Position numbers and translations under genes: made by a program. DNA of 35,002 nt from a virus (taxonomy: Duplodnaviria > Heunggongvirae > Uroviricota > Caudoviricetes): positions 1 to 35,002 of the IMG/VR virus record IMGVR_UViG_2534681936_000014; one strand, written 5' to 3'. This document shows positions 1,694-19,199 of the stretch, one piece after another; positions within the stretch are counted from its first letter, which is position 1; each line of letters begins with the position of its first letter. The notes under the pieces are model-generated. The model saw only the letters and a program-made list of their open reading frames with translations, was not told the origin of the DNA and did no database searches.

Positions 1694-1740
1694 AACGCGT
1701 TATAAATAAATGTATGAAAGATGTTGATGGTCAACGTCTA

Positions 1741-1773
1741 CGGGGGAGAACATCCCCCGCTAACCTTTTTCTT
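1741..1773 (+). terminator. Rho-independent terminator (hairpin CGGGGGA-GAACA-TCCCCCG then T-rich tract)
   Basis: 7-bp GC stem, 5-nt loop, followed by CTAACCTTTTTCTT; immediately downstream of the 1139-1693 CDS. Confidence 0.55.
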
Positions 1774-1789
1774 ATTTGAGGATTTACCT

Positions 1790-1891
1790 ATGGTTGAATT
1801 TTTGATTTATCTGGCTGTAGGATTAACTATCGTATATTCATTTGCTCACATTGGCATTTCTGCTGTGTGTAATGCTTTCAAGTATCATTAA
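1790..1891 (+). CDS. Small hydrophobic peptide (33 aa, single predicted TM helix)
   Basis: ATG at 1790 preceded by GAGGA RBS; translation MVEFLIYLAVGLTIVYSFAHIGISAVCNAFKYH; below ORF-track size cutoff. Confidence 0.35.
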   Translation: MVEFLIYLAVGLTIVYSFAHIGISAVCNAFKYH

Positions 1892-1944
1892 TTAAATCGA
1901 TGAATTGAACTATAGATGATGGTCGTTTTCAAAGAGGATTATCT

Positions 1945-2118
1945 ATGGATCTTTTTGTCTACTTTGCTACTCTGCTGTTTTTGACTATCGTCGCTGGCAT
2001 TAAATTGATTTTTATATCGCTGGTGGTGTTTTTCAAATTTCTAATCGGTACGCCTTACGGCTTGGTATGTTTAATCCTGTTTATTCTTTTTAGTTGCTGT
2101 AAATCAGACACTAAATAA
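1945..2118 (+). CDS. Small membrane protein (57 aa, two hydrophobic segments)
   Basis: ATG at 1945 with AAGAGGA RBS 6 nt upstream; translation MDLFVYFATLLFLTIVAGIKLIFISLVVFFKFLIGTPYGLVCLILFILFSCCKSDTK. Confidence 0.4.
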   Translation: MDLFVYFATLLFLTIVAGIKLIFISLVVFFKFLIGTPYGLVCLILFILFSCCKSDTK

Positions 2119-2265
2119 TATTGTAATCTGCCTTTTCTCCTTATGTGGTTTTAACAGGGAATTTTCGAAAGAGAGTTCCCGATTAAAAGCCATAAAAACA
2201 GTGTTTTCATAGTCAGTGATCCATACAACACAAAAACATAACAAGTATAGATTGAGTATTAATCC

Positions 2266-2294
2266 TCCCGCCCCTTCGGGGCGGTTATTTTTCT
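2266..2294 (+). terminator. Rho-independent terminator (CCGCCCC-TTCG-GGGCGG then TTATTTTTCT)
   Basis: GC-rich stem with TTCG tetraloop followed by T-run. Confidence 0.7.
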
Positions 2295-2369
2295 GGCTTT
2301 AAAGAATAATGTAGCATTATGTTCATTATAACCTCATCTTTGTTGTGCAAACCTAACCTAAACTTACTA

Positions 2370-2395
2370 GGGACTCTTCGGAGTCCCTTTTTTTT
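2370..2395 (+). terminator. Rho-independent terminator (GGGACTC-TTCG-GAGTCCC then T8)
   Basis: Perfect 7-bp stem, TTCG loop, eight consecutive T; second of two tandem terminators 80 bp apart. Confidence 0.75.
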
Positions 2396-2636
2396 ATGCA
2401 ACAATTCGAAGTGTAAGTTTCTTATGTTGTGTAGGTTTAGTTTCATTTCGCCACTCAGGGAATACATGACCCATCATAACCGCATTAGTCTCATCAATCA
2501 GCTTTAAGGACTTTCTCAACGCCTTATTATCAGCTTTAAGAGTTTTAATCTCTGATTCCATCGCTACCATTCTTTCTTTCATTTTGGTAATTTCTAACAT
2601 CAGATTACCCAGAAATTCTTTGTTTTGATTCATCAT
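2394..2636 (-). CDS. Small coiled-coil protein (80 aa), unknown function
   Basis: ATG ATG start at 2636-2631 with GAGGGGTGA RBS; heptad-like sequence LEITKMKERMVAMESEIKTLKADNKALRKSLKL. Confidence 0.45.
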   Translation of the reverse strand: MMNQNKEFLGNLMLEITKMKERMVAMESEIKTLKADNKALRKSLKLIDETNAVMMGHVFPEWRNETKPTQHKKLTLRIVA

Positions 2637-2651
2637 AGATTCACCCCTCTA

Positions 2652-3653
2652 TTAAGCTGCGTATGCGTAGGCGCTGTAGTTGGTGTCGTAGATAGCGTCA
2701 TGCAGTGCCATCTGTGCTTCGCGGATCTCGTCTTCGTTTACTTCAATCTCTTCTTGTTCTTCTTCGGTATCTTCCCAAGTGGTTTTGAATTTAGCCATAA
2801 AGTTATTGCGCAGGGATTCAAAGTTAGTAACAGGTGCGGATTTTTCTTCAACCGGAACTACTACCGGATCAGCTTCTTTCTGTTCTTCCTGTTCTACTTT
2901 TTCACCGTTACCCCAGCGATAGTTAAGGAGTTCTTCCAGTTCTTCATCAATGGATTTTTCTTCAACTGCTTCAACTTCAACCGCTGCTACTTCGAAAGTG
3001 GTTTCCTGCGCTGCCAGTTCAGCTTTCAGAGATGCGTTTTCAGCTTCCAGTTCAGCAATGCGTGCTTTCAGTGCTTCAACTTCGGAAGATTCAACCACTG
3101 CAACTTCTTCTTTAACTTCTTCAACTACTACCGGAGCAACTTCTTTCTGTGCTTCTTTTTTGCAGAAGAAGGAGGAAGTAACCTGTAATGCGTGGTTGTA
3201 GAAGGAACCGCCTTTAGCGGTGTTAACAGTACCAGAAACATCCTTTACAGTGGATTCAGTAGCAACAGTACGGAAGCGTTTTGCGACTTCCTGGGTCTCT
3301 ACGCCGTATTCGTTACGCTTGCTCTTGTGATGCATTACAGCACGGAAGCCGGAAGCAGTTTTAACAACAGCGAGATAGTAAGTTTCATCGGCTTTAACAG
3401 CACGAGCGAAGCAATAAACGGATTCACCTTCTACCAGTGTAGGTTTAACGTGACGTTTGTCGAAACGGTTAGTGATCTGCCATTCAGCACCGTCTTTGAT
3501 GCCAGCATTCTGACGCATTTCGGTCAGAGTCTTACCGGATACTACTTCAAAGGATTTGTCTTGTTTGCTTGCTTTACCTTCCATGACGGTAATGTTCAGT
3601 TTGCCGTTGGATTTAATAAACAGGTTGAAGGTGATGCGCTTAGAATTTTTCAT
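2652..3653 (-). CDS. Hypothetical early protein, 333 aa, globular N-terminal domain plus strongly acidic coiled-coil C-terminal half
   Basis: ATG at 3653-3651 with AGGAG RBS; codon usage typical of highly expressed genes (CGT, CTG, GGT); C-terminal half rich in E/V/A with coiled-coil segment ALKARIAELEAENASLKAEL; no family recognised. Confidence 0.65.
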   Translation of the reverse strand: MKNSKRITFNLFIKSNGKLNITVMEGKASKQDKSFEVVSGKTLTEMRQNAGIKDGAEWQITNRFDKRHVKPTLVEGESVYCFARAVKADETYYLAVVKTASGFRAVMHHKSKRNEYGVETQEVAKRFRTVATESTVKDVSGTVNTAKGGSFYNHALQVTSSFFCKKEAQKEVAPVVVEEVKEEVAVVESSEVEALKARIAELEAENASLKAELAAQETTFEVAAVEVEAVEEKSIDEELEELLNYRWGNGEKVEQEEQKEADPVVVPVEEKSAPVTNFESLRNNFMAKFKTTWEDTEEEQEEIEVNEDEIREAQMALHDAIYDTNYSAYAYAA

Positions 3654-3769
3654 TTATAAATACTCCTGAATGCTGTGTTAGTTTTAATTGTTCATTTCAA
3701 GCCTCCTTTGCTGCAACAAGGGAGGCTTTTTATTTTTAAAGCCATCATATAATTCTCAGTGAAAGTGGA

Positions 3770-3949
3770 TTAACAAACTTGAACGTTAATCTTTATCTGA
3801 ATTTCGTATTTCTTCATTAGCTTATAGAATCCGCTTCTATCAATTCCTTCCTTCTTAAAGAAATTCTCGCCGCCTCGTTCAGTATCGCCATAAAAGCGTT
3901 TAGCAATATCAACAATCATTTCACGAGTAAACTTAACAGGTCTAGCCAT
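3770..3949 (-). CDS. Small HTH DNA-binding protein (Hin/resolvase-type HTH fold), member of a three-gene paralog family
   Basis: ATG at 3949-3947 with GAGGAA RBS (the ORF-track start at 3964 is a TTG); motif RPVKFTREMIVDIAKRFY...GIDRSGFYKLMKKY aligns with the 7015-7245 and 7275-7877 products. Confidence 0.5.
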   Translation of the reverse strand: MARPVKFTREMIVDIAKRFYGDTERGGENFFKKEGIDRSGFYKLMKKYEIQIKINVQVC

Positions 3950-4138
3950 AAGTAGATTCCTCAAATGTGGATTAATAAGGACAATAAAAAGAGCTTTTCG
4001 CCCTCGATACTTCTATTTATAAAAGTCATTTCAGAAAACCCTGTAAAACCACTGTATATCTGATCAGTGGGAGCACGAATTGCTAAAGAGAAGATTAATA
4101 ATTAATCAATTCGTACATTATTCAATCGAAAAGGCACT

Positions 4139-4172
4139 GTATGTTTAACCAGTGCCGTATGTGTTAACAGTG
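4139..4172. repeat. Imperfect tandem direct repeat, 2 x 16 bp (GTATGTTTAACCAGTG / GTATGTGTTAACAGTG), each containing a GTTAAC-like palindrome
   Basis: Read directly at 4139-4154 and 4157-4172 in the ORF-free region. Confidence 0.6.
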
Positions 4173-4306
4173 AATCAGGGGATTTTCAGAAGTGAACAAT
4201 CATTTCATGCATGTATTTATACACGAAAAAATCTTGCTTATCATCAATATGGGGATTGTTTCGAAAATTTCAACCCCTACCAACGAGAAAAAGTATAAAA
4301 TAATCC

Positions 4307-4320
4307 TTGACAGTTGTCAA
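4307..4320. promoter_or_regulatory. Perfect 14-bp palindrome TTGACAGTTGTCAA (operator-like; contains a TTGACA -35-like hexamer on both strands)
   Basis: Read directly; a related inverted repeat TTGTCAA-N6-TTGACAA occurs at 5702-5721. Confidence 0.45.
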
Positions 4321-4345
4321 TACACTTGACCTAAGCGAGAAATGA

Positions 4346-4517
4346 CTATCAAAATTTTTGTGTGAAAATGGCGGATAACGATTATCAACCTTTATAACCT
4401 ATTATAGCACGGCGACCTTTTGATAATTCTTTTTAAATCATGCATTTACAGCGATTTTTGGTGATTTTCCGGTTAAATAATATACAAGAATTTTCTATCA
4501 AAATTTTTGATGAAAAA
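4346..4517. repeat. Pair of 23-bp direct repeats (CTATCAAAATTTTTG[T/A]TGAAAA) 149 bp apart flanking an AT-rich segment with TTATCAA DnaA-box-like motifs
   Basis: Copies at 4346-4368 and 4495-4517 differ at 1-2 positions; GATTATCAAC (4380-4389) and TTGATAATTC (4421-4430) in inverted orientation between them. Confidence 0.55.
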
Positions 4518-4638
4518 CCTACACTACAAACCTACGCTTTAAAGGGATTGGCCTACACTACACTAGCCAGTAAACCTACACTATAACACCCTCAAACCTA
4601 CACTATGAAACCTACACACCTACACTAACCCTACACTT
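4518..4638 (+). repeat. Iteron-like array: 7 or more copies of CCTACACTA (variants CCTACGC, CCTACACACC, CCTACACTT) with irregular 10-30 bp spacing
   Basis: Copies read at 4518, 4531, 4552, 4575, 4597, 4611/4618 and 4629; all in one orientation; no ORF. Confidence 0.7.
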
Positions 4639-5211
4639 CAATCTCATAATTGTATGATCTTGAAAGACATTTCACCCCACAGACCATAGAATATAAAATT
4701 CGAACTAACGTTCTCCTTTTTGCTCGTTTTCTCTCACTACGTTCAAGAAAGATCTCGCAAAAAGAATACGGCGTAGCCGTGCGCGAAGCGCCCATCAACA
4801 CCTTCTAAGACCTGCAAGCAGGATTCGAAAGGGATTGGATAGTTCGCTTCGCTCACGTTCACGCCTACGGCGTTCACTCGCTTTTGAAAGGATTTTCTTA
4901 GAAAGGGATTTAATACTAGTTACTAACTGATTCTAGTAAACGAACGAAGTGAGTAACAATCACTTTCTAGAAAGGTATTGGTATCCCTTCGGGATTGCAA
5001 CCTTCGGTTGCTAAATTGCTTCCTGATTATTATTTCTCCAAAAGAAAGATTCTTATATTCTAAAGATACTTCTTCGTTTTGATGATGATTTAATCAAATC
5101 ATGAAGGAGGGCTTTGCCCGACTGAATACAATCACTCTTTTCATAATAACAAGAATTTTCTCTTTATAAATAATATTAGATTGATTCACTTTCTTTTAGA
5201 GGATTTCCACT

Positions 5212-5559
5212 ATGAACCATAAAATGACTACCACTACTCCTTTCATCCTGTTAGGTTTTGATGCTGATAGCTTCCACAATGACAAGTTAATGAAGATGTT
5301 CCGTGAACGTGGTTACAACATTCTTTTCAACTCTGATGAATCTCATTTCTCTAGTGCATGGTATGCGTTTTGCCGTAATAAGAAGCCGACCATTGTTGTT
5401 AACGTCTTCACCGATGAAGAACGCTTAAAGTACCAGAATCTACCAGCAATTATTGTTCGTGATGATCTGCCGTTTCAAGTCCGTTCCGGTGACATTGATC
5501 TGGGTAGCTTCGTTACTGTCTATGAACTGGATGAAGCAATGTTTAACTACGGCAAATAA
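5212..5559 (+). CDS. Hypothetical protein (115 aa)
   Basis: ATG at 5212 with AGAGGA RBS; the TAA stop is followed in frame by a 39-codon acidic extension (see findings). Confidence 0.5.
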   Translation: MNHKMTTTTPFILLGFDADSFHNDKLMKMFRERGYNILFNSDESHFSSAWYAFCRNKKPTIVVNVFTDEERLKYQNLPAIIVRDDLPFQVRSGDIDLGSFVTVYELDEAMFNYGK

Positions 5560-5701
5560 CCCGCTCAGGAAGCCCCAGAACAAGATGAACAAGACGAAGA
5601 TGACGACGACTACGCACCAATCTGTTTCTCTTCTCAGAATGGCTTCTACGGTTACGATGAAGGCTTAGATATGCTGTAAGTTAGGTCAACCCTTTGGCGT
5701 C

Positions 5702-5743
5702 TTGTCAAGGGGTATTGACAAAATTTTATGACTTTTTATGATT
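5702..5743 (+). promoter_or_regulatory. Candidate sigma70-type promoter (TTGACA-16bp-TATGAT) overlapped by inverted repeat TTGTCAA-N6-TTGACAA
   Basis: -35 TTGACA at 5715-5720, -10 TATGAT at 5737-5742; inverted repeat 5702-5721; about 60 bp upstream of the 5801 ORF. Confidence 0.45.
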
Positions 5744-5800
5744 GTTGCACTTGACAACTTTGAACCTATTTGACCTAGATTTGTAAAAAGGATGTTAATT

Positions 5801-5947
5801 ATGAACACTACTAAGAAAATTGATGGACGTAAAAACCCGAACCGCAAACCGTGGACCCCAAACCTGAATTTCTCAATGGTTGACTTCCATGAACGCCAGC
5901 GTCGCATTCAAGAAGAAATTGATCGCGCGATTGCTGAATCTAAATGA
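5801..5947 (+). CDS. Small basic protein (48 aa), unknown function
   Basis: ATG at 5801 with AAAAAGGA RBS 7 nt upstream; translation MNTTKKIDGRKNPNRKPWTPNLNFSMVDFHERQRRIQEEIDRAIAESK; below ORF-track cutoff. Confidence 0.4.
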   Translation: MNTTKKIDGRKNPNRKPWTPNLNFSMVDFHERQRRIQEEIDRAIAESK

Positions 5948-6045
5948 GATAAAAACTTCTTATAAATAAAATTGTTCCGGTGATGCTGCCGGAACTAGGA
6001 GGATCAATATCATTATCGCAAAACCGTTTAAGGGGAATTACTACT

Positions 6046-6879
6046 ATGAATACTGTTACTACTATGAATACTGCTGTTAAAACTGCTTCCGTGTCTCTGG
6101 TTGTTGATAACGAAGTTGCAAAAATGACTCTTCGTGAAATTGCCGACCTTATTGGAGTTCGTTTTTCAAACCTTGAAACTTCTATGAACCGACTGGTTGA
6201 ACGCCAAGTTATCCGAAAACCTGCAACGCAGAATTTCGAGAAAATCAATAACTTAGGGTTTGCTGTTACTGTTAAAGATTATGTGTTTGAGGGTGAGCAA
6301 GGTCGCTTAGATTCGATTGTCTTGATTGCTCAAAACGTACCGGAATTTACTCGCCAACTGGTTGACCGTTGGAATTATCTGGAAGAGAAACTGAAAACCG
6401 CCAATAATACTCCTGTTAACCCGTATGCAGACTTTGAAGAAACCGATTGGATCGAACTGGCATTAGATGAAAAACGCAAAAATAAAAAACTGATTGAGCT
6501 ACACATTCGCAAATCCGTAGATAGCCATTCTATGACACGTCTGTTAGGCGCTAAAAAGGGCGCTACGAAGGTTAAAGAAGCACTGACGGCCTTACGTACT
6601 GCTGGATACATTGAGCGCGTCTATGATGAAAATAACAAGCCGTGTGGGTATGTTGCTAATGACTCTTCTCTGTCTTTCTGCCGCATGAATGCTCACTACC
6701 AACTTGAGTTTACTGTTGATGTTCTTCCGGTGCTGGTTGAATTGGGCGTTTTGGAAGAAGAACAGAAAGCAACTCTTAAACTACCGCAGCCAAATAACAC
6801 TATTCTGATTCAAAACAAAGCTGCTAAACAGATTCGTGAATCAGGTAACGTAATTTCCCTTGTTGATTTTGGGATCTGA
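6046..6879 (+). CDS. Putative phage regulatory protein (Rha/antirepressor-like N-terminal HTH segment); function uncertain
   Basis: Internal ATG at 6046 with AAGGGGA RBS (ORF-track start 5980 is a GTG); segment MTLREIADLIGVRFSNLETSMNRLVERQ resembles Rha-type DNA-binding domains from memory. Confidence 0.45.
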   Translation: MNTVTTMNTAVKTASVSLVVDNEVAKMTLREIADLIGVRFSNLETSMNRLVERQVIRKPATQNFEKINNLGFAVTVKDYVFEGEQGRLDSIVLIAQNVPEFTRQLVDRWNYLEEKLKTANNTPVNPYADFEETDWIELALDEKRKNKKLIELHIRKSVDSHSMTRLLGAKKGATKVKEALTALRTAGYIERVYDENNKPCGYVANDSSLSFCRMNAHYQLEFTVDVLPVLVELGVLEEEQKATLKLPQPNNTILIQNKAAKQIRESGNVISLVDFGI

Positions 6880-6885
6880 TTAATC

Positions 6886-6917
6886 GCCCGGCGCATAATT
6901 GCGCTGGGCTTTTTGTA
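6886..6917 (+). terminator. Rho-independent terminator (GCCCGGCGC-ATAATT-GCGCTGGGC then TTTTTGTATTT)
   Basis: 9-bp stem with one mismatch followed by T-run, directly after the 6046-6879 CDS. Confidence 0.7.
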
Positions 6918-6978
6918 TTTGGTGCATCCAGATTTGTCGGAAGAATATAGATGCGCTGAACTTTAAGCGCATGTGCAT

Positions 6979-7008
6979 AAAAAAAGGCCAACCCCGAAGG
7001 ATTGGCCT
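6979..7008 (-). terminator. Rho-independent terminator for the minus-strand gene ending at 7015
   Basis: Hairpin GGCCAACC/GGATTGGCC preceded on the plus strand by A7, which is a T7 run after the stem on the minus strand. Confidence 0.65.
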
Positions 7009-7014
7009 AGAGAA

Positions 7015-7245
7015 TCAAATTCCTGTTGCTTCTACCATTTCACCGTCAACCTGAACAAAGAATTTCAAATCAACTTTATGGAGTGATTTGTAGAATTGAG
7101 CGATTGAAATACCGTGTTCACTCAATACTTGTTCTTTTTCGGCTTTACCTTTCGGCGCTTGATAGTACGCTTTTACAATCGCTGCCAGTTGTTCACGATT
7201 AAAACGGGCAGGGCGACCGCGAGTAGCTTTAGTAGTCATAGTCAT
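7015..7245 (-). CDS. Small DNA-binding protein: AT-hook-like RGRPAR arm plus Hin/resolvase-type HTH
   Basis: Likely ATG at 7245 or 7239 (ORF-track start at 7272 is a GTG); TRGRPARFNREQLAAIVKAYY...GISIAQFYKSLHK matches the pattern of the Hin DNA-binding domain (GRPRAI...GVSTLYRY) from memory. Confidence 0.55.
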   Translation of the reverse strand: MTMTTKATRGRPARFNREQLAAIVKAYYQAPKGKAEKEQVLSEHGISIAQFYKSLHKVDLKFFVQVDGEMVEATGI

Positions 7246-7274
7246 TTTCTCCAAATTAAAGTGAATGTTCACCT

Positions 7275-7877
7275 TTATTTAGAGGACTTACATTTTATCG
7301 GAAAAAGTTCTCCATCGTCAACCGACATAAAGAACTCTGCCTTAATCCCGTACTTCTTCAACCGTGAATAATATGTACCCCGACTAATATCAACCTTGCG
7401 CAGCACTTCGAAGAACTCTTTAGGATTCCTGTAATAGTGGCTATATCGCACGTTAGCGAGTTCTACAAACAATTCCCTTGTATCACCATAGCCTTTCTTG
7501 AAAGCCACGTTACGATAGCGTGTAATGGCATGATTCAATCTCTTCTGTTTAAGCACTTCCCTGATCGGTGTCCACTGCAACCGATAGATCGGACCGTCAT
7601 CCACTCGATAATAACGCTTGATATCAAAATCAAACCATTCACGGACTCGCTGAAACTCTGTCTGTGATGTTCGGTGCTTCTTAAAGAAGTTGTGAATATC
7701 TGTATATCCCTGATCGCGATACAACTCTATTAAAATTTGCTTCGCTTCCTCGCGACTAAAGCCGGATGTTGTGTAATCAGTCTTCTTGTGATGGTGCTTA
7801 ACTGGCAAACGATATTCATGATCGGTACAAGACAAGGCTAATTCTAATTCATCTCTTTCTTGCTGATTAATTAGCAT
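7275..7877 (-). CDS. Protein with two tandem copies of the same Hin-like HTH module (200 aa)
   Basis: ATG at 7877 with AAAGGGGG RBS; contains [29 protein letters not shown] and [20 protein letters not shown]...[13 protein letters not shown], both similar to the 3770 and 7015 products. Confidence 0.55.
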
Positions 7878-7962
7878 ACAACCCCCTTTGATTAATACCC
7901 GTATTTATCAAAATATCAACAATTTAATAAATACCTTCCTATTTCGTAATGAGGGTAATTAC

Positions 7963-9870
7963 ATGAAACTGATTTCTAATAAGGCAAAATTAAAAAAGAT
8001 TCTCAGAAATGCAGCCAAATATATTACGCCACCGCCTAAACTCCTTCCGTCTGAATGGTGCGAAGCTAATATGGTGCTGGTAGATGGTCCTCAAGCTGGG
8101 GATAAAGTTAAATTGTTGTCATTCCAGAAAGGTATGATTGATGCTCCTTTCCTTGAGAACAAGAAAAAGTATGTCCTGATGACCAGTGCGCAGATCGGAA
8201 AAACTACCATCCTAAACGGTATCCTGTTTAACCAGATGGCTAACGATCCATGCAATATGATTATCGGACAATCAACCGCTAAAGAAATGTCTCAATATCT
8301 CGCTGGTAAGATCCGACCGTCTATCGAAGCATGTGATGCATTAAAAGACGTGGTTACAGACAAGAATGATCGCAATGCAGTTAACAACAATAACCAACTC
8401 CAGCTAAAAACGAATCACTTCCTGTACATGGTATCGCTTACCAGTCCATCAACCCTACGCGGTAAGACCGCAAAGGTTGGATTACTTGACGAAATCGATG
8501 CTGCCACAGCCTCAGAAGAAGGTGATCCGGTGGCACTGGCTGCTAACCGTTTAACTACCTTTGGCGATGAAGGTCGATTAGTCGTATCCAGTACCCCGAC
8601 CAGTAAGCTGGGAAGCATTAACCAGCAATGGTTATCAAGCGATATGCGTATGTTTTTTGTTCCGTGTCCTCATTGCGGGGAACACCAGGTGATCGAGTGG
8701 GAAAACGTACAGTTTGAATGGCGTAACATCGATGGTAAGAACTTACCCGATCCTGATACCGCTCGTTATATTTGCCCCCACTGTAAGAACGCATGGACCG
8801 AAGGGGAACGAATCAGGGCAGTAGCACAAGGCGAGTGGAGAGCAACCCGTGAAAGTGAAGTAGCCGGATTCTGGATCAGTCGTCTGTATTCACCTTTCAG
8901 CACGATCCGCGCTTGTGTGGTTGATTTTAGTCATGCGTGGCAATCCTTTGATTTACAATCATTTTATAACACCGTATTAGGCAAGGTATACGACGATCAG
9001 GACACGGCAGTAGAAGCAAATGAACTGGAACAACTCAAAACAGATGTTTCTATCGAGAATATCCCTGATGACGTGATTTTCTTGTGCTCAGGAATTGACC
9101 AGCAATTAGACCGCGCAGAGTCTACCATCTTAGGTGTAGCGAAAGATAAGGTTTACATTCTGGATCACCGCAGCTTTTACGATCATAACTGTGAACGATA
9201 TGAATCACCTGTTTGGGATCGTCTGGTTAACTTCAAGAAAACCAAATTCTATAACGTTAATGGTGAACGTGTGCCAATGCTCGCCAGCTTCCTTGATACA
9301 TCGAACGGTCGATTCACTCAAGCCGGATACCGTATTTGCGGCAAGTGGAAGAACCTACACGCTATCAAGGGTAGTTCATCTGGTAATGCTCCAGTAATTC
9401 CGGTTAAACCTACCCGCACAGGTGGTCATGAATTGCTTATGTTGGGTGTTAACGTTGGTAAATCCGCTGTTCGTGAAATGCTGGTTAGAAACCTGAAAGA
9501 CAATCCTCACATCGGCTTAGAAATATCAGAAACCGTTCCTGATGATTATCTCGATCAGCTTTTGAGTGAATCCATCAAGCGTACTACTACAGGTGTGCGT
9601 TGGGTGAAAAATCCAGGTAGTACCCGAAACGAGGCTCTCGACTGTCTGGTTTATAGCTATGCTGCTTCTCGCTACGTCCTTTCAAAAATGTCATGGGATA
9701 AACTCATTGCAATGAAAGACAGCTTAAACCGTGTTGTCGAAGAATCCGTAGAAGCTCCTAAATCGCAATCTGACGAGCAAATCGAAGAAACTAAGCCAAT
9801 CACACGACCGCAACGTCAAAACATCGCCAGACGCCCAAATAGAGGCCGTAGCTGGGTAACATCGTTCTAA
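7963..9870 (+). CDS. Terminase large subunit (GpA-like)
   Basis: 635 aa from ATG 7963 with GAGGGTAA RBS (ORF-track start 7888 is a TTG); Walker [12 protein letters not shown]; Cys-rich zinc-ribbon-like segments CPHCGEH...CPHCKNAW; size and gene order match a lambda-type large terminase. Confidence 0.88.
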
Positions 9871-9942
9871 TAACTCGCCGTCCTTCGGGGCGGCCTCCCC
9901 CTAAATATTGTTAATCCAATAACAATTAAATAAGGGGTAATT

Positions 9943-10437
9943 ATGAGTTTAGAACTAATTCCCTTAGTAATTCGTAAAGGCGAAAAAATCACGCTGGCGA
10001 ATGAAGAGGGTGTAACAATTCAGGTAGGAAATGGTAAAGGTATCATTTATCAGGTTGATGATACTCCGGCTAATCACGAGATTAAAACCTTAGATTTTGC
10101 CGAAGGTAAATATACCATCGTAATAACTTTGGAAGAAGAACTGGTATCAATGCAGGAATTAACTGTTTTGCCAGTATTCGCCAAACAATCCAAAAAAGAA
10201 TATCTGCGCGAAACGATTTCTGTAATCGAGCAAGTTATTTTCGCCAGGCTATCGGGGGACGAGGCCGCATTATCTCAAATGACAGTGAAAGGGAATACTT
10301 TCGCTTATGAGTCATTAGGTGTTCTCCAGCAATTAAAGACTGATTATGAACGTCAGTTATCAAAATTAATTCAAGCCGAACGACGTAAACAGGGAATTAG
10401 CCCGATTAAAAATATCAAATTACGTCTTACGCGATAA
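9943..10437 (+). CDS. Hypothetical head-associated protein (164 aa) between terminase and portal
   Basis: AAGGGGTAA RBS; position corresponds to the head-tail joining slot of lambda-like phages; no motif recognised. Confidence 0.5.
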   Translation: MSLELIPLVIRKGEKITLANEEGVTIQVGNGKGIIYQVDDTPANHEIKTLDFAEGKYTIVITLEEELVSMQELTVLPVFAKQSKKEYLRETISVIEQVIFARLSGDEAALSQMTVKGNTFAYESLGVLQQLKTDYERQLSKLIQAERRKQGISPIKNIKLRLTR

Positions 10438-10447
10438 GGGGTAAATC

Positions 10448-11959
10448 ATGTTTAATCTTTTTCGACGCAAAAAGGCGGTAGAAACTCCAGTTAAAACTAA
10501 TCACCGCCAGCAACAACCAAAAATTTTCATCGACAAACAAGTAGAAAAATTCCAGAAAGATTTGTCTAAGCGTTCTTTGGGCTTAGTAGGTGATCGCATT
10601 GATGGATCGCTTCAACAAGATACTATCACAGGAACCTTCAATAAGGCTCTCAAATCGAATGGTAAGCGCCTTTATGATCAGGGTCGTACTCTGGCCTTAA
10701 ACACTTCCGTAGGCAGTCGCTACACGCAATACATCACCGATATGGTGGTAGGTACTGGCCTAGATCCGAAGCCGTCAATCGTTAAATCAAATGGCACACT
10801 TGATAGCGCACTGAATAAGCAGATCGAGAATGCTTTCTGGAAGTGGGCGCAGAATGCTAAACGCTTCTCTCGTAACGGTCGCTTTAACTTCCGTGAACTG
10901 CTGGTAATGGCTGAACGTGAGCGCGTTATGGGTGGTGAGTGCTTCATCGTTTTAACCAAAGAAAACAATGAGTTAAATGTTTCTATCCTGTCTGCTGATA
11001 AATGCGACTGGTCGCTAAACCGTGAAGTAAGCAAAGAGCGTGCTATCTATCAGGGGATCGAGTATGACGTGGAAACGATGAAGCCCGTAGCATTCTGGTT
11101 TCGTAAAGTCAACCTACTGACTCAGACTTACACAGGTGATAACTATCGCGTAGATGCTTCGCAAGTATGCCATTATTATCAACCACTTGCGGCTGAATCT
11201 CTGCGTGGTGTGACTGACTTCCTACCAGTGATTAAGGATATCGCACATCAAGACGCATTCCGCGAAACTGCGATCATCCAGAAACGTATTGCAGCTAGCT
11301 CTATGGGCTTTATCGAACGTCCGAAAGATTCTGGTGACGATTTTGATACTGGTGAAGAGGATGAACAATATCAAGCGCCGGAAGTAGTACAGGATTTTGC
11401 ACCGGGTACTATTCAGGAATTGCCGGAAGGGGCAACGATCAGGAGCATCCAGGCGACGCAAAACGGTGATGACTTTAACAGCTTCAATGATGCGATGTTT
11501 ACTAGCGTATCAATGGGCTTAGGCGTGTTTAAACAGGGCTTAACGGGAGATTGTTCACAGATCAACTACTCAGCCGCACGTTTTGGTGAACTACTTCAAC
11601 GTAACCGCGTTAAAGCACTTCAAAACAAATTGATTGAAACAGTGGTGTTGCCAATTTTCGAAGCGTATCTGCGTCATTATTCCGCGCGTGGTGTTGTTCC
11701 GATTCGTATTACTGCAATTCCACATATTATCGATAACACTACTATTATCAGGCCACGTTTCGAGTCTGTCGATGTTATTAAAGACGTAAACGCTGATATT
11801 GCTTTAATTGATAAAGGACTTAAATCACGTACTGCCGTTATTCTTGAACGTGGTGATGATCCTGAAAAAGTATTCTCAGAGATTCAAGCCGAAAAGAGCG
11901 CACTAAATATTATCGTTGATGGTGAGGGTGAAGAAAAAAATTCCCCAGCCGATCCCTAA
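10448..11959 (+). CDS. Portal protein
   Basis: 503 aa directly downstream of the terminase block, AAGGGGTAA RBS, acidic C-terminus; size and position typical of lambda-family portal proteins. Confidence 0.8.
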   Translation: MFNLFRRKKAVETPVKTNHRQQQPKIFIDKQVEKFQKDLSKRSLGLVGDRIDGSLQQDTITGTFNKALKSNGKRLYDQGRTLALNTSVGSRYTQYITDMVVGTGLDPKPSIVKSNGTLDSALNKQIENAFWKWAQNAKRFSRNGRFNFRELLVMAERERVMGGECFIVLTKENNELNVSILSADKCDWSLNREVSKERAIYQGIEYDVETMKPVAFWFRKVNLLTQTYTGDNYRVDASQVCHYYQPLAAESLRGVTDFLPVIKDIAHQDAFRETAIIQKRIAASSMGFIERPKDSGDDFDTGEEDEQYQAPEVVQDFAPGTIQELPEGATIRSIQATQNGDDFNSFNDAMFTSVSMGLGVFKQGLTGDCSQINYSAARFGELLQRNRVKALQNKLIETVVLPIFEAYLRHYSARGVVPIRITAIPHIIDNTTIIRPRFESVDVIKDVNADIALIDKGLKSRTAVILERGDDPEKVFSEIQAEKSALNIIVDGEGEEKNSPADP

Positions 11960-12004
11960 TAACCAACGGGGGCGCAATGCCCCCAATTAATTAAAGGTGA
12001 TTAA

Positions 12005-14011
12005 ATGCTTAAATTTCGCCGCGATCTTAACGGTTACGGTGGGGTTATTAACGAAGGGCAGAATGATCAATACGAATTTGAAATTGCTTTCTCCAGTGAA
12101 CAGCCTTATCAGCGCCGATTCTGGGATGAGCAAAATCAAGAAATGGTGGTATTAGATGAAATTCTGGTACATACACCGGAAGCGGTTGATCTGTCTCGTC
12201 TGAATAATAACGCTCCGTTGCTGTTCAATCATATTTTCGATAATCACATTGGTGTCGTTTGTAACGCTCGAATCGATGCGGATAAAGTAGGCCGTGCGAC
12301 CGTTAGATTCTCTAAGCATGGCACTTTGGCTAATGATATTCGTAATAAAGTCATTGAAGGTACGATGGAAAAAATATCGGTCGGCTATGACATTAAAGAG
12401 TATCACATCGACTACGCTAAATCGCAACTCATTGTTTCTAAATGGATTCCTCACGAGGTTTCATGGGTGTCTGTTCCCGCAGACGACACCGTGGGTCTGA
12501 ATCGCTCTCTAAATACTATCACAGTTAATTTGGAGGCTAAACGCGATATGACTAAAGAACAAATCGAAGAAATCAAAGAAGAACAAGAAGCCGCTCAGGT
12601 TGAAGAAACTCCGGTAGAAGAAATTAAAGAACCGGAAGTAGAAGAAACTCAAGAGCGCCAAGTTGAAGAGAATAAAGAAGATGAAAATCTCGAAGACGGA
12701 AAAGACGCTGAACATCCTGAAAGTGTTGATGATGATAGTTCAACTGTTCGGGAAACAGAAGAAGTAAAAGAAGAACGTGAAGCCGCTCCGGTTGAAGAAG
12801 AAAAAATCGAAGAAGTGGCTGAACGTTCCGAAGAAGACGAAGAAGAAATCCGAGCAATCGCTCGTGAGTTAAATATTAACGACGAAGAATTAGAACGCGC
12901 ATTGGCAGTTAAAGATATGACGCCGGAAGCATTCCGCACTAAGGCACTAAATAACATTACCAATGCTCAACGTAATAACGAACAAATTAATAAGGAACAA
13001 ATCATGGAAAAAACTTTCGATCTTAATAACGTAATCCGCTCCCTGGTAGATGGCGACGTGCTCGGCGCTAACGAAGCTGAATATTCCGCTATGGCTGCTA
13101 CTGCAACTATGCAGCGTGGTCGTGCTGCTCGTGGTGGCTCTGTATTCGTTCCGGCTGCTGCTATGCGTGCTGCTGCTGCTGGTAACACCAAAGCTACTCT
13201 GGAAGCTATCACTGACGAAAAACTGATGACTGAATCCTACATCGAAATGCTGATGCCGGAATCTGTTCTGGGTCGTCTGGGTGTGACTGTTTACAGTGGC
13301 TTGAACTCCCCGACCGCTATTCCAAAAATGACTAAATCCAGCGTTGACGCTTTCGGCTTCGTTGATGAAAACGGCGCTGCACCGGAAAGCAAAGCTGAAT
13401 TTGCGAACGTGAAACTGTCTCCGAAAACTTTTGCTGGTGGCAACCCGATCAGCCGTCAGTCGCTGAAAACCGTTCCGGGTATCGCTTCCCTGATCACTGA
13501 TCACATTAACAAAGCTGTTCGTATCAAACTGGAACAACTGATTCTGTCTGACAAAGACAACGAGCGCGGTCCGGCTGGTCTGGTTAAGCAACTGGTTGAT
13601 GCAAGCCGTGTTACTAAGAAAGCCGCTTTCTCTTATAAAGACTTCCTGAAAGAAATTGCAGCACTGACCGACGCTGGCGTTCCTGCTCAGGCGATCAAGT
13701 TTGCAATGAGCGGTGCAACTGCTGCTGAACTGGAATCTACCCTGAAAGATAACGGCGTTTCCGGTTATATCATCGAAAACGGCAAACTGGCTGGTTACGA
13801 AGTAATTACTTCTGGCGTTATTCCGGCAGACCACATCGTTCTGGGTGACTTCTCCGGTATTACTATCGGTGAGTGGGGCGGTCTGGAACTGGATATGGAT
13901 CTAACTACATACCGTGACCGTGGTGCGGTAGTGCCTCGTATCTTTGTAGATTTGGACTACGTTGTAGCACAGCCGGAAGCTCTGAAAGTTCTTCACATCT
14001 CCGCTGAATGA
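12005..14011 (+). CDS. Prohead protease fused to major capsid protein (protease - acidic linker - capsid) in one ORF
   Basis: 668-aa uninterrupted frame; N-terminal about 170 aa with HK97-type prohead protease features (ISVGY...EVSWVSVPADDTVG); E-rich linker 12540-12900; C-terminal about 300 aa with strongly biased highly-expressed codon usage and capsid-like sequence; strong terminator downstream. Confidence 0.75.
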   Translation: MLKFRRDLNGYGGVINEGQNDQYEFEIAFSSEQPYQRRFWDEQNQEMVVLDEILVHTPEAVDLSRLNNNAPLLFNHIFDNHIGVVCNARIDADKVGRATVRFSKHGTLANDIRNKVIEGTMEKISVGYDIKEYHIDYAKSQLIVSKWIPHEVSWVSVPADDTVGLNRSLNTITVNLEAKRDMTKEQIEEIKEEQEAAQVEETPVEEIKEPEVEETQERQVEENKEDENLEDGKDAEHPESVDDDSSTVRETEEVKEEREAAPVEEEKIEEVAERSEEDEEEIRAIARELNINDEELERALAVKDMTPEAFRTKALNNITNAQRNNEQINKEQIMEKTFDLNNVIRSLVDGDVLGANEAEYSAMAATATMQRGRAARGGSVFVPAAAMRAAAAGNTKATLEAITDEKLMTESYIEMLMPESVLGRLGVTVYSGLNSPTAIPKMTKSSVDAFGFVDENGAAPESKAEFANVKLSPKTFAGGNPISRQSLKTVPGIASLITDHINKAVRIKLEQLILSDKDNERGPAGLVKQLVDASRVTKKAAFSYKDFLKEIAALTDAGVPAQAIKFAMSGATAAELESTLKDNGVSGYIIENGKLAGYEVITSGVIPADHIVLGDFSGITIGEWGGLELDMDLTTYRDRGAVVPRIFVDLDYVVAQPEALKVLHISAE

Positions 14012-14103: not shown

Positions 14104-14131
14104 AGCCCTGCCTAACGGTGGGGCTTTTTTG
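14104..14131 (+). terminator. Rho-independent terminator downstream of the capsid gene
   Basis: Hairpin AGCCC...GGGCT followed by TTTTTTG. Confidence 0.65.
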
Positions 14132-14160
14132 TATGTAAATACTCCATAAAGGGGGTAACT

Positions 14161-15773: not shown

Positions 15774-18700
15774 ATGCAATCAATCCAATTTAAACGAACT
15801 AATGTTTCTGGCAAAAAACCAACGCCGGAACAATTACAGGTCGGTGAGGTAGCAATCAACCTTAAAGACCATGTTATTTTTACCAAAGACCGAGATCATG
15901 AAGTAGTTCAAATCTCTGTTTCTCCTGAAACTCACGCGGCACTAGAATCTAAAGTTGATGCTAACAAACAAGAATTGGATAGCACAATTGCAGTAAATGA
16001 CCGCAATATTCACGCTAAAGTAGATGAAATTAAACAAACTACTGATTCTACTATCGCAGCAAATCATGCAGAAATTAACAATAAAGTTGATGTAATTAAA
16101 CGCGAAACCGACGCGACAATCGAAGCTAATAAAAATAAAGCTGCTTCCGATCTTGCTGGTGTTAAAGCTGAATTGTCGGATACCATCAACGCTAATAAAA
16201 ATGCGGCTGCTGTAGCAACTCAGGAACTGGACACCCGCATCAATAAAAAAGTTGATGATATTAAATCCCGTACTGATGCAACCATCGCAAGCAATCACAA
16301 AGCAATCAATGACAAAGTTGATTTGATTAAGGCAGAAACTGACCGCACTATCGCAGCAAATCAAGCCTATGCGGAAAATCAGTTAACTGACACCTACAAT
16401 AACCTTACTGGTGTGATTGCAGCTAATAAGCAAGAGGCAGCGGATAGCGTCGCAGCATTAACCCGTGATGTTGAAGCCAAAAATACAGCAATTCATAGCA
16501 AAATTGACAACAACAAGGTTTACACTGATTCTGAATTGGCACGCTTAGAAAGCCGTATTGATGCAGCCGATGGATCTGCTGATGGCAAGTACATCAAAAA
16601 ACACGTAAACACTTATACTGATGGTTATTTGCTGTCTAAGACCGCAAACTATTTTGATGATCCAAATGCGCGTAATCTTGATTACTTTGGTGCATTCCGC
16701 ATGAATGACCTGGCGGGTCATATTGCAATGATCTTGCATGTTCCGCATCCATCTGGTGTTAATCATGCTCGTGGCTTTGAGTTCACTTATGGGTCTAATC
16801 CACATGCTACTGTAAGAACATACGGCTATGATGAATTAGGTAATTTGTCATATTCTCACCGCATGTATCATGAAGGCGATAAACCTACTCCGGCTGAAAT
16901 TGGCGCATATTCGAAAGCAGAAATTGACCGACTGTTCCAGAAGACGCTTAATTTTGGGATCGAGGGTGGTTGGTTTAAACTCGGTAGTTTAACACTGCCA
17001 CAGCAACACGGTCGTAGTGCTAAGATCCGCTTAGTTGGTGGTAACGGTTATAACGTCGGGATGAATGGACAAGCCAATATTATCGAATTGGTGATTCGAT
17101 GCGGCAACAATAGCCCGAAAGGTGTTGTATTCAATGCTTATTATAGCATCTGGTATCACGAACAACATTTTTGTGCAATTCCTACCGATGGTGATAATTA
17201 CGATCTTTACGCTTACTACGGTGCACATACAGGATTTGTTTTAGCAGAATATCAAGTTTCTTCCGGTGGTGTTTCTTTAAACCTGTTGGATACTCCTGAA
17301 TATCTGGGTGGTGAAAAACCTGTTGCAGATGAAATTTTTGATGCTCTTAACATTTCATCGTTCAATAACTTTAGCAACCGTGGGACGTTAAATTTTGCTG
17401 GAAACCATCAAGGCCAATATGACATTGAGCATATGAACGAACAACAAACTAACAGCAAAAAGATGTTGCGTCGCTTCCGTAGTTCTGCTCCTGCCACTAT
17501 CTGGCACGAAAGTGTTGATGACCAAAATTATCGTCTTGCTACTGGTTATGACGATGTAAACCAACAATTATTGCTTTCGGCTGCAACCGGGTTACATGTC
17601 AAGAGATTAACATTGGATGGCGGTGTTGGTAATGCCGGTATTGACATTCGTCGAGGACCAAACGAATCAAGCCATTTTAATTTTATGGATTATCGCACTG
17701 GTCAAGATGTTCGTAATGGCTGGTTTGGTTTTGGTGATTTGACGACCAAAGATTTTATTTGGTGGAACGATAACGGCCAAAACTCGATAAACCTGATTGA
17801 AGATGGCGAGTTGCATATTACTGGTGGTAAAGGCCAGAAAATTGTAATGAATAGCGAAGTTGCATTATCCGAAAATGCTCGTTTGGCTGTCAAAGGCGGT
17901 AACTATGGTTTGATATTACGCAATGATGGTTCTAGCTTCCATATTCTTACTACCGATTTAAAAGATTCTTTTGGTAATTGGAATAATCGCAGACCATTCA
18001 GTTATGATTTTGCGGACGGTGGATTATATTTAGGTGGTACTGAAACTGCTCGTTGTTTGCATCTTGGAATTGATGGTAGCACTCGTCTCGAAGACAACCT
18101 GTTCTTTAAAGCTGGTTCTCGTCAATCTATGGACTATATGGAACTCGTCCATTGGGGTGCAAGCAATACAGGTCGAAATAACGTTTTAAGTCTTCGTGAC
18201 TCAAAAGGATTTTTAGCCGAATTTGAACGTCTATGGGATAATACTACCAAAAACACCTTCTTCGGGAAAATGAAAATTAATCGTGGATCTGATGCAATTA
18301 TCATGAATGCCGAAAGTGGTGATTCGTCTGTATATTTGTTGGGTACGTGTGCTGACAACAACAACTGGTATATTGGTAAAGGCGGTGGTGATAATGGATT
18401 AGCGTTCTATAGCTATGCTACTAATGCCGCGATAAATCTTACGAACGCTGGGGATATTGCATTAAGTCCAAAAGGCGTCGAAATGGTTCATGTTAATAAC
18501 GCTCGATTATATGTTCATGGTGAACGTTGGACCGCTAGTCAACCAGGTGATTGGGGTAATCAGTGGCGAGTGGAAGCGCCAATATTCGTCGATCATGGCT
18601 ATGTTGGACAAGACTGTTATTATCCGATTGTTAAAGCAAGAAGTTTAATCACCAATCAAGGGTATACAACTGCCGTCGATTTTGGTATGCGTCGTATCCC

Positions 18701-19199
18701 TAACAATTGGGGACAAGCAATTATTCGTGTTGGATCTGCGGAAAACTCACCTGATAACGGACACCCTCAAGCTGTATTTGAGTTCCATCACGATGGGTTC
18801 TTTTACACGCCGGGTAACGGTAGCTTTAACGATGTGCATATTCGATCTGATGAACGTCTTAAGATCAACAAGGAAGAATTGGAAGAAGGTGCGCTGGATA
18901 AATTAAACAGCTTAACCGTATATTCCTACGATAAAGTTAAATCACTTTCTGATGATACAGTGGTTGGACGCGAATTAGGTGTCATTGCTCAAGATGTGGA
19001 AAAAGTTATGCCGGAAGCTGTGCACGTTTGCAGCGATGGAGATACCGAAAATCCAGGAGAAATTAAAACTATTTCTGTTTCTAGTATCAATGCTCTTTTC
19101 GTGAAAGCCTTTCAGGAATTAACGACTAAGTATGATGCGATGAACGAAGAGTTGAAAGCTGTTAAAGCTGAACTTGCGGCTATTAAATCCTGTAAATGA
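15774..19199 (+). CDS. Tail fiber protein with C-terminal S74-type intramolecular chaperone (self-cleaving) domain
   Basis: 1141 aa; N-terminal shaft built from about 22-aa repeats (KVDxIKxxTDxTIAAN); C-terminal region ...SDERLKINKEELEEGALDKLNSLTVYSYDKV...GVIAQDVEKVMPEAVH... matches the signature of endosialidase / T5 L-shaped-fiber chaperone domains from memory. Confidence 0.85.
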   Translation: MQSIQFKRTNVSGKKPTPEQLQVGEVAINLKDHVIFTKDRDHEVVQISVSPETHAALESKVDANKQELDSTIAVNDRNIHAKVDEIKQTTDSTIAANHAEINNKVDVIKRETDATIEANKNKAASDLAGVKAELSDTINANKNAAAVATQELDTRINKKVDDIKSRTDATIASNHKAINDKVDLIKAETDRTIAANQAYAENQLTDTYNNLTGVIAANKQEAADSVAALTRDVEAKNTAIHSKIDNNKVYTDSELARLESRIDAADGSADGKYIKKHVNTYTDGYLLSKTANYFDDPNARNLDYFGAFRMNDLAGHIAMILHVPHPSGVNHARGFEFTYGSNPHATVRTYGYDELGNLSYSHRMYHEGDKPTPAEIGAYSKAEIDRLFQKTLNFGIEGGWFKLGSLTLPQQHGRSAKIRLVGGNGYNVGMNGQANIIELVIRCGNNSPKGVVFNAYYSIWYHEQHFCAIPTDGDNYDLYAYYGAHTGFVLAEYQVSSGGVSLNLLDTPEYLGGEKPVADEIFDALNISSFNNFSNRGTLNFAGNHQGQYDIEHMNEQQTNSKKMLRRFRSSAPATIWHESVDDQNYRLATGYDDVNQQLLLSAATGLHVKRLTLDGGVGNAGIDIRRGPNESSHFNFMDYRTGQDVRNGWFGFGDLTTKDFIWWNDNGQNSINLIEDGELHITGGKGQKIVMNSEVALSENARLAVKGGNYGLILRNDGSSFHILTTDLKDSFGNWNNRRPFSYDFADGGLYLGGTETARCLHLGIDGSTRLEDNLFFKAGSRQSMDYMELVHWGASNTGRNNVLSLRDSKGFLAEFERLWDNTTKNTFFGKMKINRGSDAIIMNAESGDSSVYLLGTCADNNNWYIGKGGGDNGLAFYSYATNAAINLTNAGDIALSPKGVEMVHVNNARLYVHGERWTASQPGDWGNQWRVEAPIFVDHGYVGQDCYYPIVKARSLITNQGYTTAVDFGMRRIPNNWGQAIIRVGSAENSPDNGHPQAVFEFHHDGFFYTPGNGSFNDVHIRSDERLKINKEELEEGALDKLNSLTVYSYDKVKSLSDDTVVGRELGVIAQDVEKVMPEAVHVCSDGDTENPGEIKTISVSSINALFVKAFQELTTKYDAMNEELKAVKAELAAIKSCK
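15952..16380 (+). repeat. Intragenic tandem repeats, about 66-bp period, encoding the fiber shaft
   Basis: Successive units starting near 15952, 16018, 16084, 16249 and 16315 all begin AAAGTxGATG...ATTAAA...ACxGA. Confidence 0.6.

Follow-up and report, generated by a model that had tools for sequence, protein, structure and literature searches.

The 35,002-nucleotide (nt) stretch of viral DNA analyzed here, IMG/VR record IMGVR_UViG_2534681936_000014 (positions 1 to 35,002; hereafter the window), comes from a chromosomal prophage of Escherichia coli that adjoins hicAB/yncJ. The gene at positions 12005 to 14011 of its plus strand is an uninterrupted open reading frame (ORF) that joins a prohead protease to a major capsid protein. 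Our analysis of its translation signals and codon usage makes it likely that the gene combines three capsid-assembly functions and is read as a set of nested in-frame products. The sequence signals indicate that translation of most capsid protein begins at an internal start and that only a minority of subunits would carry the protease, and a strict 1:1 ratio of protease to capsid protein is probably wrong.

A first-pass annotation of the window had described the ORF as a single 668-residue frame, and its coordinates proved exact: the frame is free of stops from its ATG to the TGA at 14009-14011 and encodes a protein of 73.9 kDa. That annotation also proposed that protease, scaffold, and capsid protein are released in equal amounts from one polypeptide. 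The proposal conflicts with two features, a conserved internal Shine-Dalgarno (SD) sequence followed by an ATG and a step in codon usage within the gene. The check it recommended, for an internal start with its own ribosome-binding site (RBS) near 13000 to 13100, was positive and revealed the arrangement AAGGA-N7-ATG with the ATG at 13004.

Start signals and codon usage within the gene

An in-frame start codon with an RBS, conserved among relatives, lies downstream of the protease domain, and two internal ATGs are candidates for initiation (Table 1). Among 15 in-frame ATGs, that of Met182 has the strongest SD duplex (free energy, dG, of -9.3), and it occupies a family-conserved position at the boundary between protease and linker, in weakly structured RNA. 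Three observations argue against its use in this prophage: its 11-nt spacer is long, its SD reads GGGGG in 2 of 7 variants that carry the same allele, and codon usage shows no step at this position once Glu and Lys codons are excluded. Met182 is possibly a minor start in this phage.

The SD of Met334 has a dG of -6.2. This codon falls within the least-structured ~11% of positions and sits four residues before a conserved F-D-L...R motif. Its AAGGA-N7-ATG signal is present in all 11 E. coli-type copies compared, despite differing codons in the spacer. In the nearest non-E. coli clade (loci L008 to L011), the acidic linkers are free of Met, and the homologous SD-ATG provides the first Met after the protease domain. 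On these signals, Met334 is the best-supported candidate for the major start in this prophage. Another in-frame ATG, Met631 (13895-13897), is preceded by a strong SD-like motif (dG -7.1); it would encode only 38 residues, and the motif is probably a chance match.

Codon usage changes within the gene. The fraction of E. coli-optimal codons (Fop) is 0.53 in the protease domain and 0.50 to 0.56 in the terminase, portal, and fiber genes; it is 0.82 to 0.88 downstream of Met334 and up to 1.0 over residues 361 to 420. With Glu and Lys excluded, Fop is 0.50 for residues 1 to 181, 0.56 for residues 182 to 333, and 0.82 for residues 334 to 668 (p = 7e-12 and 2e-6), in agreement with the first-pass remark that the capsid end has the codon usage of a highly expressed gene. 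The best single change-point is codon 342, with a log-likelihood ratio of 29.0 compared with a maximum of 10.2 in 1,000 permutations. Across the prophage, Fop serves as a proxy that follows copy number or expression: it is 0.76 in the tail tube gene and 0.38 to 0.60 in all other genes but one (minus strand, 2652-3653). As one co-translated chain implies equal ribosome flux per codon, the step within the gene argues for more initiation downstream.

The change-point coincides with the phage's own SD-ATG in each E. coli phage compared, namely, the window, DCP80, Bas97, and ep3. In DCP80, Fop rises from 0.47 to 0.71-0.80 at codons ~190 to 204, and the SD-ATG is at codon 180 (M180); in Bas97 and ep3, the change-point is 221 and the SD-ATG is at M217 and M216, respectively. 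No sigma-70-like promoter was found on the plus strand inside the ORF, in a test that is weak given that phage late promoters may differ, and an internal promoter of this type was rejected as the source of differential expression.

Internal start signals were also found across the family. In five distant homologues, the first Met past the motif that ends the protease domain (E-I-S-x-V-S-V-P-A-D-x-x-V-G) lies 17 to 21 residues downstream, where the unconserved linker begins, and each of these Met codons is preceded by an SD-like motif (GGAGG, GGAGG, GAGGTG, AAGGA, or GAGGA). R4C, VP882, phiHAP-1, and DCP80 have an SD and ATG homologous to those of Met182. We analyzed this boundary in 82 non-redundant loci, which are related to one another, so that the p-values overstate their independence. 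The first in-frame ATG lies within 45 residues of the motif in 73 loci, compared with 53.8 ± 4.0 (maximum 66) in the shuffle null. SD duplexes with a dG of -5 kcal/mol or lower are present at 58.5% of these boundary ATGs, as opposed to 14.4% for 1,031 further in-frame ATGs, 13.8% for codon positions overall, and 14.3% for codons in the linker zone (Mann-Whitney U tests of boundary against control SD strength, p ≈ 8e-8 and 7e-8). In 32 loci, against 6.4 expected, the best SD of any internal ATG is found at the boundary. A position-agnostic histogram of ATGs gave one sharp peak, 15 to 29 residues past the motif, made up of 55 ATGs, 64% of which have an SD compared with 0 to 26% elsewhere. The RNA at the boundary ATG is weakly structured (-4.2 versus -8.3 kcal/mol, p = 3e-19), and codon bias is stronger in the capsid part than in the protease part in 69 of the 82 loci (effective number of codons, 37.5 versus 45.2; p = 7e-12). 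Both of these measures are host-independent. The last difference and the codon-optimization step, as strong but indirect proxies, suggest greater translation of the downstream part. A Met codon 8 residues before F/Y-S-L was considered as a second family-wide start and rejected: Met alternates there with Leu in a conserved peptide motif, and the ep3 copy lacks an SD.

It has been proposed, and disputed, that ribosomes pause at SD-like sequences within genes. By that account, the internal motifs would be translational pause sites, or the Met would belong to a protease cleavage site, and they would aid co-translational folding or processing of the protease domain instead of initiation. Such a role gains some credit from the existence, further downstream, of a different conserved Met/Leu peptide motif, IG[ML]S..E...[FY]SL, that is clearly no start. 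A pause would not require a correctly spaced ATG, but it is ATGs that are enriched (55 in a single 15-residue bin), and neither pausing nor cleavage predicts the step in codon bias. We regard this explanation as hardly probable and internal initiation as the better account of the motifs.

Domain architecture of the 668-residue protein

The HK97-type protease-like domain noticed in the first pass at the N terminus was recovered by Pfam PF04586 (Peptidase_S78; residues 40 to 162, 38.3 bits versus a gathering cutoff of 21). TIGR01543 (proheadase_HK97, an equivalog profile) gave 30.1 bits and did not reach its cutoff of 59; by these profiles the domain is a divergent S78 member and no gp4 equivalog. 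His76 and Ser125 are invariant across homologues of 25 to 58% identity in two alignments. Using hhalign, they fell on His65 and Ser114 of HK97 gp4, which we take to be its catalytic residues, in an alignment that covered both motif blocks with an overall probability of only 32%. Searches of the PDB with the protease domain, by single sequence and by profile, returned only noise. The full-length AlphaFold2 (AF2) model matched only capsid proteins in the PDB; a domain-only protease model was then built, and its fold search identified a herpesvirus assemblin/T4 gp21-like fold.

The AF2 model, built on 31 homologues, has a mean predicted local distance difference test (pLDDT) score of 77.5. It shows a β-rich domain at residues 21 to 165 (pLDDT of 84 to 95), followed by disordered residues at 170 to 182 and 196 to 271, with pLDDT below 50 in the latter segment. 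Net charge is approximately -8 to -11 per 30 residues over residues ~181 to 300. The acidic spacer (residues 183 to 275) matched no family profile, and its length and sequence are not conserved among relatives. In the model it looks like a disordered tether rather than a scaffold. The first-pass annotation had taken an acidic linker of about 120 residues for the scaffold or delta domain; its acidity was borne out, whereas the scaffold role shifts to the predicted helical region that follows.

In that region, which may represent the scaffold-like part, AF2 placed helices at residues 276-288, 293-301, 307-337, 340-349, 355-370, and 384-391 (pLDDT of 73 to 92). It holds a family-conserved module, E..R..EI.AI...G.S...F (residues ~281 to 317), and an F/Y-S/D-L...R motif (residues 338 to 345). 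No sequence similarity to the HK97 delta domain was detectable with hhalign over residues 276 to 391. Many family members have the motif I/V-G-M/L-S/T-x-x-E-x-x-x-F/Y-S-L-x-x-A-I-R at residues ~330 to 345, about 60 residues before the mature N terminus, and this peptide might serve as a recognition site for the protease or as a contact between scaffold and shell.

Table 1. Positions, in the window, of features in and around the protease-capsid gene
Feature	Position (nt)	Strand	Details
GC-rich hairpin GGGGGCGCAATGCCCCC	11968-11984	+	Between portal stop (11959) and ORF start
Full-length start	11994-12007	+	Shine-Dalgarno AAGGTGA, 4-nt spacer, ATG 12005
Prohead serine protease domain, S78 / HK97 gp4 type	12065-12499	+	Residues 21-165
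Predicted catalytic residues	His76, 12230-12232; Ser125, 12377-12379	+	Invariant and aligned to HK97 gp4
Candidate internal start 1, Met182	12532-12550	+	GGAGG, 11-nt spacer, ATG 12548; 487-residue, 53.1-kDa protease-less product
Acidic, predicted-disordered spacer	12551-12829	+	Residues 183-275, isoelectric point 4.05
Helical scaffold/delta-like region	12830-13177	+	Residues 276-391, from AF2 and conserved columns
Candidate internal start 2, Met334	12992-13006	+	AAGGA, 7-nt spacer, ATG 13004; 335-residue, 35.4-kDa capsid precursor with 63-residue propeptide
Hinge with predicted maturation cleavage zone (~K396/A397 to L399)	13184-13231	+	Residues 394-409, AF2 pLDDT <50
HK97-fold major capsid domain	13193-14008	+	Residues ~397-668, ~29 kDa mature
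Intrinsic-terminator-like hairpin and T-run	14104-14135	+	93 nt past ORF stop

The C-terminal domain, described as capsid-like in the first pass, matched Pfam PF05065 (Phage_capsid) over residues 410 to 664 with 93.8 bits versus a cutoff of 24.2, and AF2 gave residues 410 to 668 an HK97-like fold. Foldseek matched the domain to the R4C capsid chain 8GTA (6.6e-18), phiXacJX1, D3, and HK97 1OHG (8.4e-12), a phmmer comparison with 8GTA gave an E value of 2e-24, and hhalign placed it on residues 159 to 378 of HK97 gp5 with 96% probability. The HK97 crosslink residues K169, N356, and E363 align to A459, G640, and F647. This triad is not conserved, and no chainmail is therefore expected. Isopeptide chainmail defines HK97 itself, not the HK97-fold family.

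Gene 006 of Dinoroseobacter phage R4C encodes 629 residues, and its virion capsid chain, 8GTA, consists of 268 of them, residues 362 to 629. The first residue of this mature chain maps to residue ~399 of the window protein. The alignment and the position of the AF2 hinge suggest a mature N terminus near residues 397 to 399. By analogy with R4C, everything upstream of the capsid domain would be removed.

These domains would also be compatible with ATG 12005 as the sole start, each subunit beginning as a 74-kDa polyprotein from which autoproteolysis releases protease, scaffold, and capsid protein in equimolar amounts. Such a polyprotein accords with the single uninterrupted ORF conserved in E. 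coli and in hundreds of clusters, with its listing as one protein in all public annotations, with the intact catalytic residues, and with the absence of the N-terminal part from the relative's mature capsid. It leaves unexplained the conserved SD and ATG at the domain boundary, the difference in codon optimization between the two parts (0.50 versus 0.82 in the window, 69 of 82 loci family-wide), and the location of the codon step at each phage's own internal SD-ATG. We further estimate that 415 copies of ~43 kDa would load a T=7 shell with ~18 MDa of internal cargo, several-fold more than the delta domains and protease of HK97. A sole upstream start thus appears unlikely to us, and nested initiation remains the preferred reading.

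Genomic context, relatives, and modular alleles

The ORF is represented in RefSeq by one coding sequence, WP_000911566.1, called “phage major capsid family protein.” Upstream of it lie the gene for a large terminase of the gpA type, a small ORF, and the gene for a portal of the λ type; head-completion and tail genes follow. The complete chromosomes of E. coli FDAARGOS_946 and O55:H7 DEC5A carry a sequence-identical ORF. Variants of 85 to 96% nt identity occur in 49 of 5,426 complete E. coli genomes, chromosomal in every case, and the Prokaryotic Genome Annotation Pipeline (PGAP) calls nearly all of them one coding sequence, “phage major capsid (family) protein,” the exceptions being insertion sequence (IS) insertions or truncations. 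Hundreds of protein variants at 94 to 96% identity retain both Pfam domains. With identical copies in two complete genomes, intact copies in most of the 49, and hundreds of variants, a sequencing artifact or pseudogene fusion was ruled out. No near-DNA match was found in collections of isolated phages and plasmids.

Both domains lie in one uninterrupted ORF that is kept in relatives. Using tblastn, the same two-domain ORF was found in 78 phage records, some of them labeled “major capsid protein and protease,” including phiHAP-1, VP882, R4C, FoX/Xp10-like phages, the Rhodobacter RcC cluster, S-CBS1/3, and the E. coli Jilinvirus phages ep3 and Bas97. An exhaustive HMMER search gave 6,321 hits, 458 of them at E ≤ 1e-30, and of the 150 best-ranked sequences representing clusters at 50% identity, nearly all are 560 to 700 residues long; IMG/VR contains at least 581 confirmed relatives. 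PHROG 617 covers the 668-residue protein end to end (residues 20 to 663, E = 7e-92), and PHROG 4523, “major head and protease protein,” matches its first half. NF045541 (scaf_prot_MCP2, “prohead protease/major capsid protein fusion protein”) gave 121.7 bits over residues 21 to 341 only, below its cutoff of 525; by this profile the protein is a member of a different subfamily. In genome papers, such genes appear at the level of annotation, as “fused major capsid and protease,” and the fusion as such is a known, already catalogued kind.

Two groups of relatives have unusual features. In IMG/VR loci L018, L019, L022, L023, L025, L027, L085, and others, the stop-free frame runs 300 to 450 residues upstream of the protease domain, for 750 to 1,080 open residues; this could reflect a larger fusion (e.g., with a portal or MuF-like domain) or a mere open frame. 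Escherichia phage DCP80 (L004, PQ671644.1), a 140,978-bp record assigned to Straboviridae/Gaprivervirus (T4-like), has a λ-type terminase, a portal, and the fusion module at positions 1-13786. Its module is the closest phage relative of this prophage (43% amino acid identity), and the record may be a chimeric assembly or misclassified.

In E. coli OkiPb01713, ETEC1717, and CFSAN061761 (L086 to L088), the segment equivalent to window positions 12005 to 12560 is occupied by an alternative protease allele, with 45% amino acid identity to the window over residues 1 to 181 (~47% at the nt level), and the linker-capsid part from residue 182 is 94 to 100% identical. The two parts recombined no more than a few codons from Met182, where these alleles have an in-frame GGAG-N8-GTG. 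The swap shows that the protease and scaffold-capsid modules are each exchanged whole by recombination, in the manner of separate genes. A 297-residue protein, P0153, was considered as a natural split protease gene and rejected as an IS3-truncated copy.

The internal SD-ATG and the codon step might be unused relics of a gene fusion through stop loss or of recombination between modules from different phages. Separate, adjacent protease and capsid genes are the norm in HK97 and the ancestral arrangement; mosaic joints exist inside the gene, and its second half could derive from a better-adapted phage. Disuse of the internal RBS is difficult to reconcile with the maintenance of the SD and ATG across lineages of 25 to 45% identity, in an otherwise unalignable linker, and SD sequences that vary while the signal persists point to continuing selection. 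In the window, the codon step is at ~342, away from the recombination joint at 182. A codon bias with Fop values of up to 1.0 would decay if it were not used, and production of the whole chain at capsid levels would have optimized the protease part too. It therefore seems quite unlikely that the signals are relics, and we retain the reading in which they direct internal initiation.

Further observations concern the surroundings of the gene. In E. coli variants, the hairpin GGGGGCGCAATGCCCCC is kept ahead of either protease allele and might be a transcription attenuator or an mRNA stabilizer. The longest ORF of the large terminase gene (7888-9870) begins at TTG 7888, and PGAP places the start at 7963. 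In E. coli FXCREC043, OW848980, and AP028561, the capsid gene is broken by an IS1, IS903B, or IS3-family element, arguing that some of these prophages are decaying. A gene for a 1,141-residue “tail fiber domain-containing protein” (15774-19199) separates the head-completion genes from the tail tube gene; a fiber gene is unusual at this point of a siphovirus-like module. Finally, the hypothetical minus-strand gene at 2652-3653 (~333 codons), on the early/lysogeny side, has an Fop of 0.83, as high as that of the capsid part. It had no match in Pfam or PADLOC and may be a highly expressed lysogeny-phase gene (moron or defense).

A proposed nested-product model and its counterparts in other viruses

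In the model that we propose, initiation at ATG 12005 would yield a low-abundance 74-kDa chain composed of the S78 protease, a disordered acidic tether, the helical scaffold-like segment, and the HK97-fold capsid domain. Internal initiation would be far more frequent, mainly at ATG 13004 (Met334) in this prophage, and its product would be a 35-kDa capsid precursor that has a short helical propeptide; a 53-kDa scaffold-capsid protein may also be produced, from ATG 12548 (Met182). By means of its C-terminal domain, the full-length chain would co-assemble like any other capsid subunit. The protease would thus reach the inside of the procapsid on its acidic tether without a separate targeting signal, and the abundant internal product or products would build the shell. 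The protease would cut all precursors, itself included, near residue ~397 to generate a mature capsid protein of ~29 kDa, and the N-terminal pieces would be degraded or expelled. The protease-to-capsid ratio would depend on how often two or three sites of a single mRNA initiate relative to one another. Within the E. coli prophage clade, Met334 would represent a downstream shift of the main start, leaving the tether and the conserved helical module only on the protease-bearing chains.

We lean toward extending this view to the fusion genes of hundreds of tailed-phage lineages, which would then be nested genes and not simple polyproteins: a conserved in-frame internal RBS would supply an abundant protease-less scaffold-capsid (or capsid) precursor, and rare chains bearing the protease on a flexible tether would enter the shell as subunits, with Met334 as the main start in the E. 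coli prophage clade.

Several points weigh against the model. All of its support is computational and consists of sequence statistics. The two candidate starts conflict: Met182, with the better SD, has a long spacer and lacks a codon step, and Met334, with the codon step, has a weaker SD and is kept only in a sub-clade. Initiation at Met334 would leave a 63-residue propeptide as the sole scaffold, shorter than the delta domain of HK97, which is 102 residues long. Mosaic ancestry could in principle account for the codon step, as the gene is documented to have recombined internally. In the family-wide analysis, besides the relatedness of the loci, ~40% of boundary ATGs have no clear SD, perhaps because their hosts may make little use of SD sequences, and the purine-rich, low-complexity linker partly confounds the RNA-structure test.

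The annotated fusions (phiHAP-1 gp5, VP882, R4C gp006, Xp10-like FoX, RcC, ep3/Bas97, and actinophage clusters AN, EE, AU, and AW; PHROG 617 and 4523) have the same domain order in ORFs of ~560 to 700 codons. They share with the 668-residue protein an S78 protease, a variable linker, a helical segment, and an HK97-fold capsid domain. The window protein differs from them in that it is only 25 to 45% identical to any isolated phage, its linker is unusually acidic, and it has a clade-specific second SD-ATG (M334) that is apparently its main start. In the literature that we searched, we found nothing on internal starts in protease-capsid fusions; a prior description may exist in subscription journals.

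HK97 gp4 and gp5 belong to the same protease family, with the His and Ser residues aligned, and to the same capsid fold, with an N-terminal helical propeptide that is removed at maturation. The portal-protease-capsid order is also the same, and putative terminators at the portal/protease junction and after gp5 of HK97 occupy the places of the hairpins found here. In HK97, however, a stop codon splits gp4 and gp5 into two genes, and gp4 is targeted by its own C-terminal tail. In the window there is one ORF, and the protease is covalently joined to a capsid subunit. It is plausible that the fusion descends from HK97-like gp4 and gp5 genes that lost the intervening stop codon but retained the RBS of the second gene.

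Nested genes for protease and scaffold are known from λ (C/Nu3, with an SD before both starts), herpes simplex virus 1 (HSV-1; UL26/UL26.5), and the archaeal virus HFTV1 (gp17/gp17.5, identified by ribosome profiling). In all three, the full-length protein carries the protease, and an in-frame internal start gives an abundant protease-less product with a shared C terminus for co-assembly. The shared C-terminal part is only a scaffold in these viruses, and the capsid protein is encoded by a separate gene. In contrast, the nested product predicted here would include the capsid protein; the protease would be delivered as a capsid subunit whose capsid domain stays in the shell. Proteins of the P2 gpO type resemble the fusion in having a protease N-terminally fused to an assembly domain and in removing themselves by autoproteolysis; their protease family and arrangement are different. 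Mu I/Z and T4 gp21 are further examples of nested protease/scaffold genes.

The fusion itself is ordinary, and its expression logic is what would matter. Databases label these genes as one protein, “major capsid protein,” which hides the protease and the probable internal starts, and a change-point in codon bias within a gene can flag such hidden starts. Bas97 and ep3, which are tractable E. coli phages, and inducible prophages are systems in which the prediction can be tested. If the prediction holds, it would explain why phages of a widespread class need not package a protease with every capsid subunit, and it would extend the principle of λ C/Nu3 and herpesvirus UL26/UL26.5 to the capsid protein itself. 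It would also represent a new answer to the problem of protease targeting, the protease riding into the procapsid as a capsid subunit.

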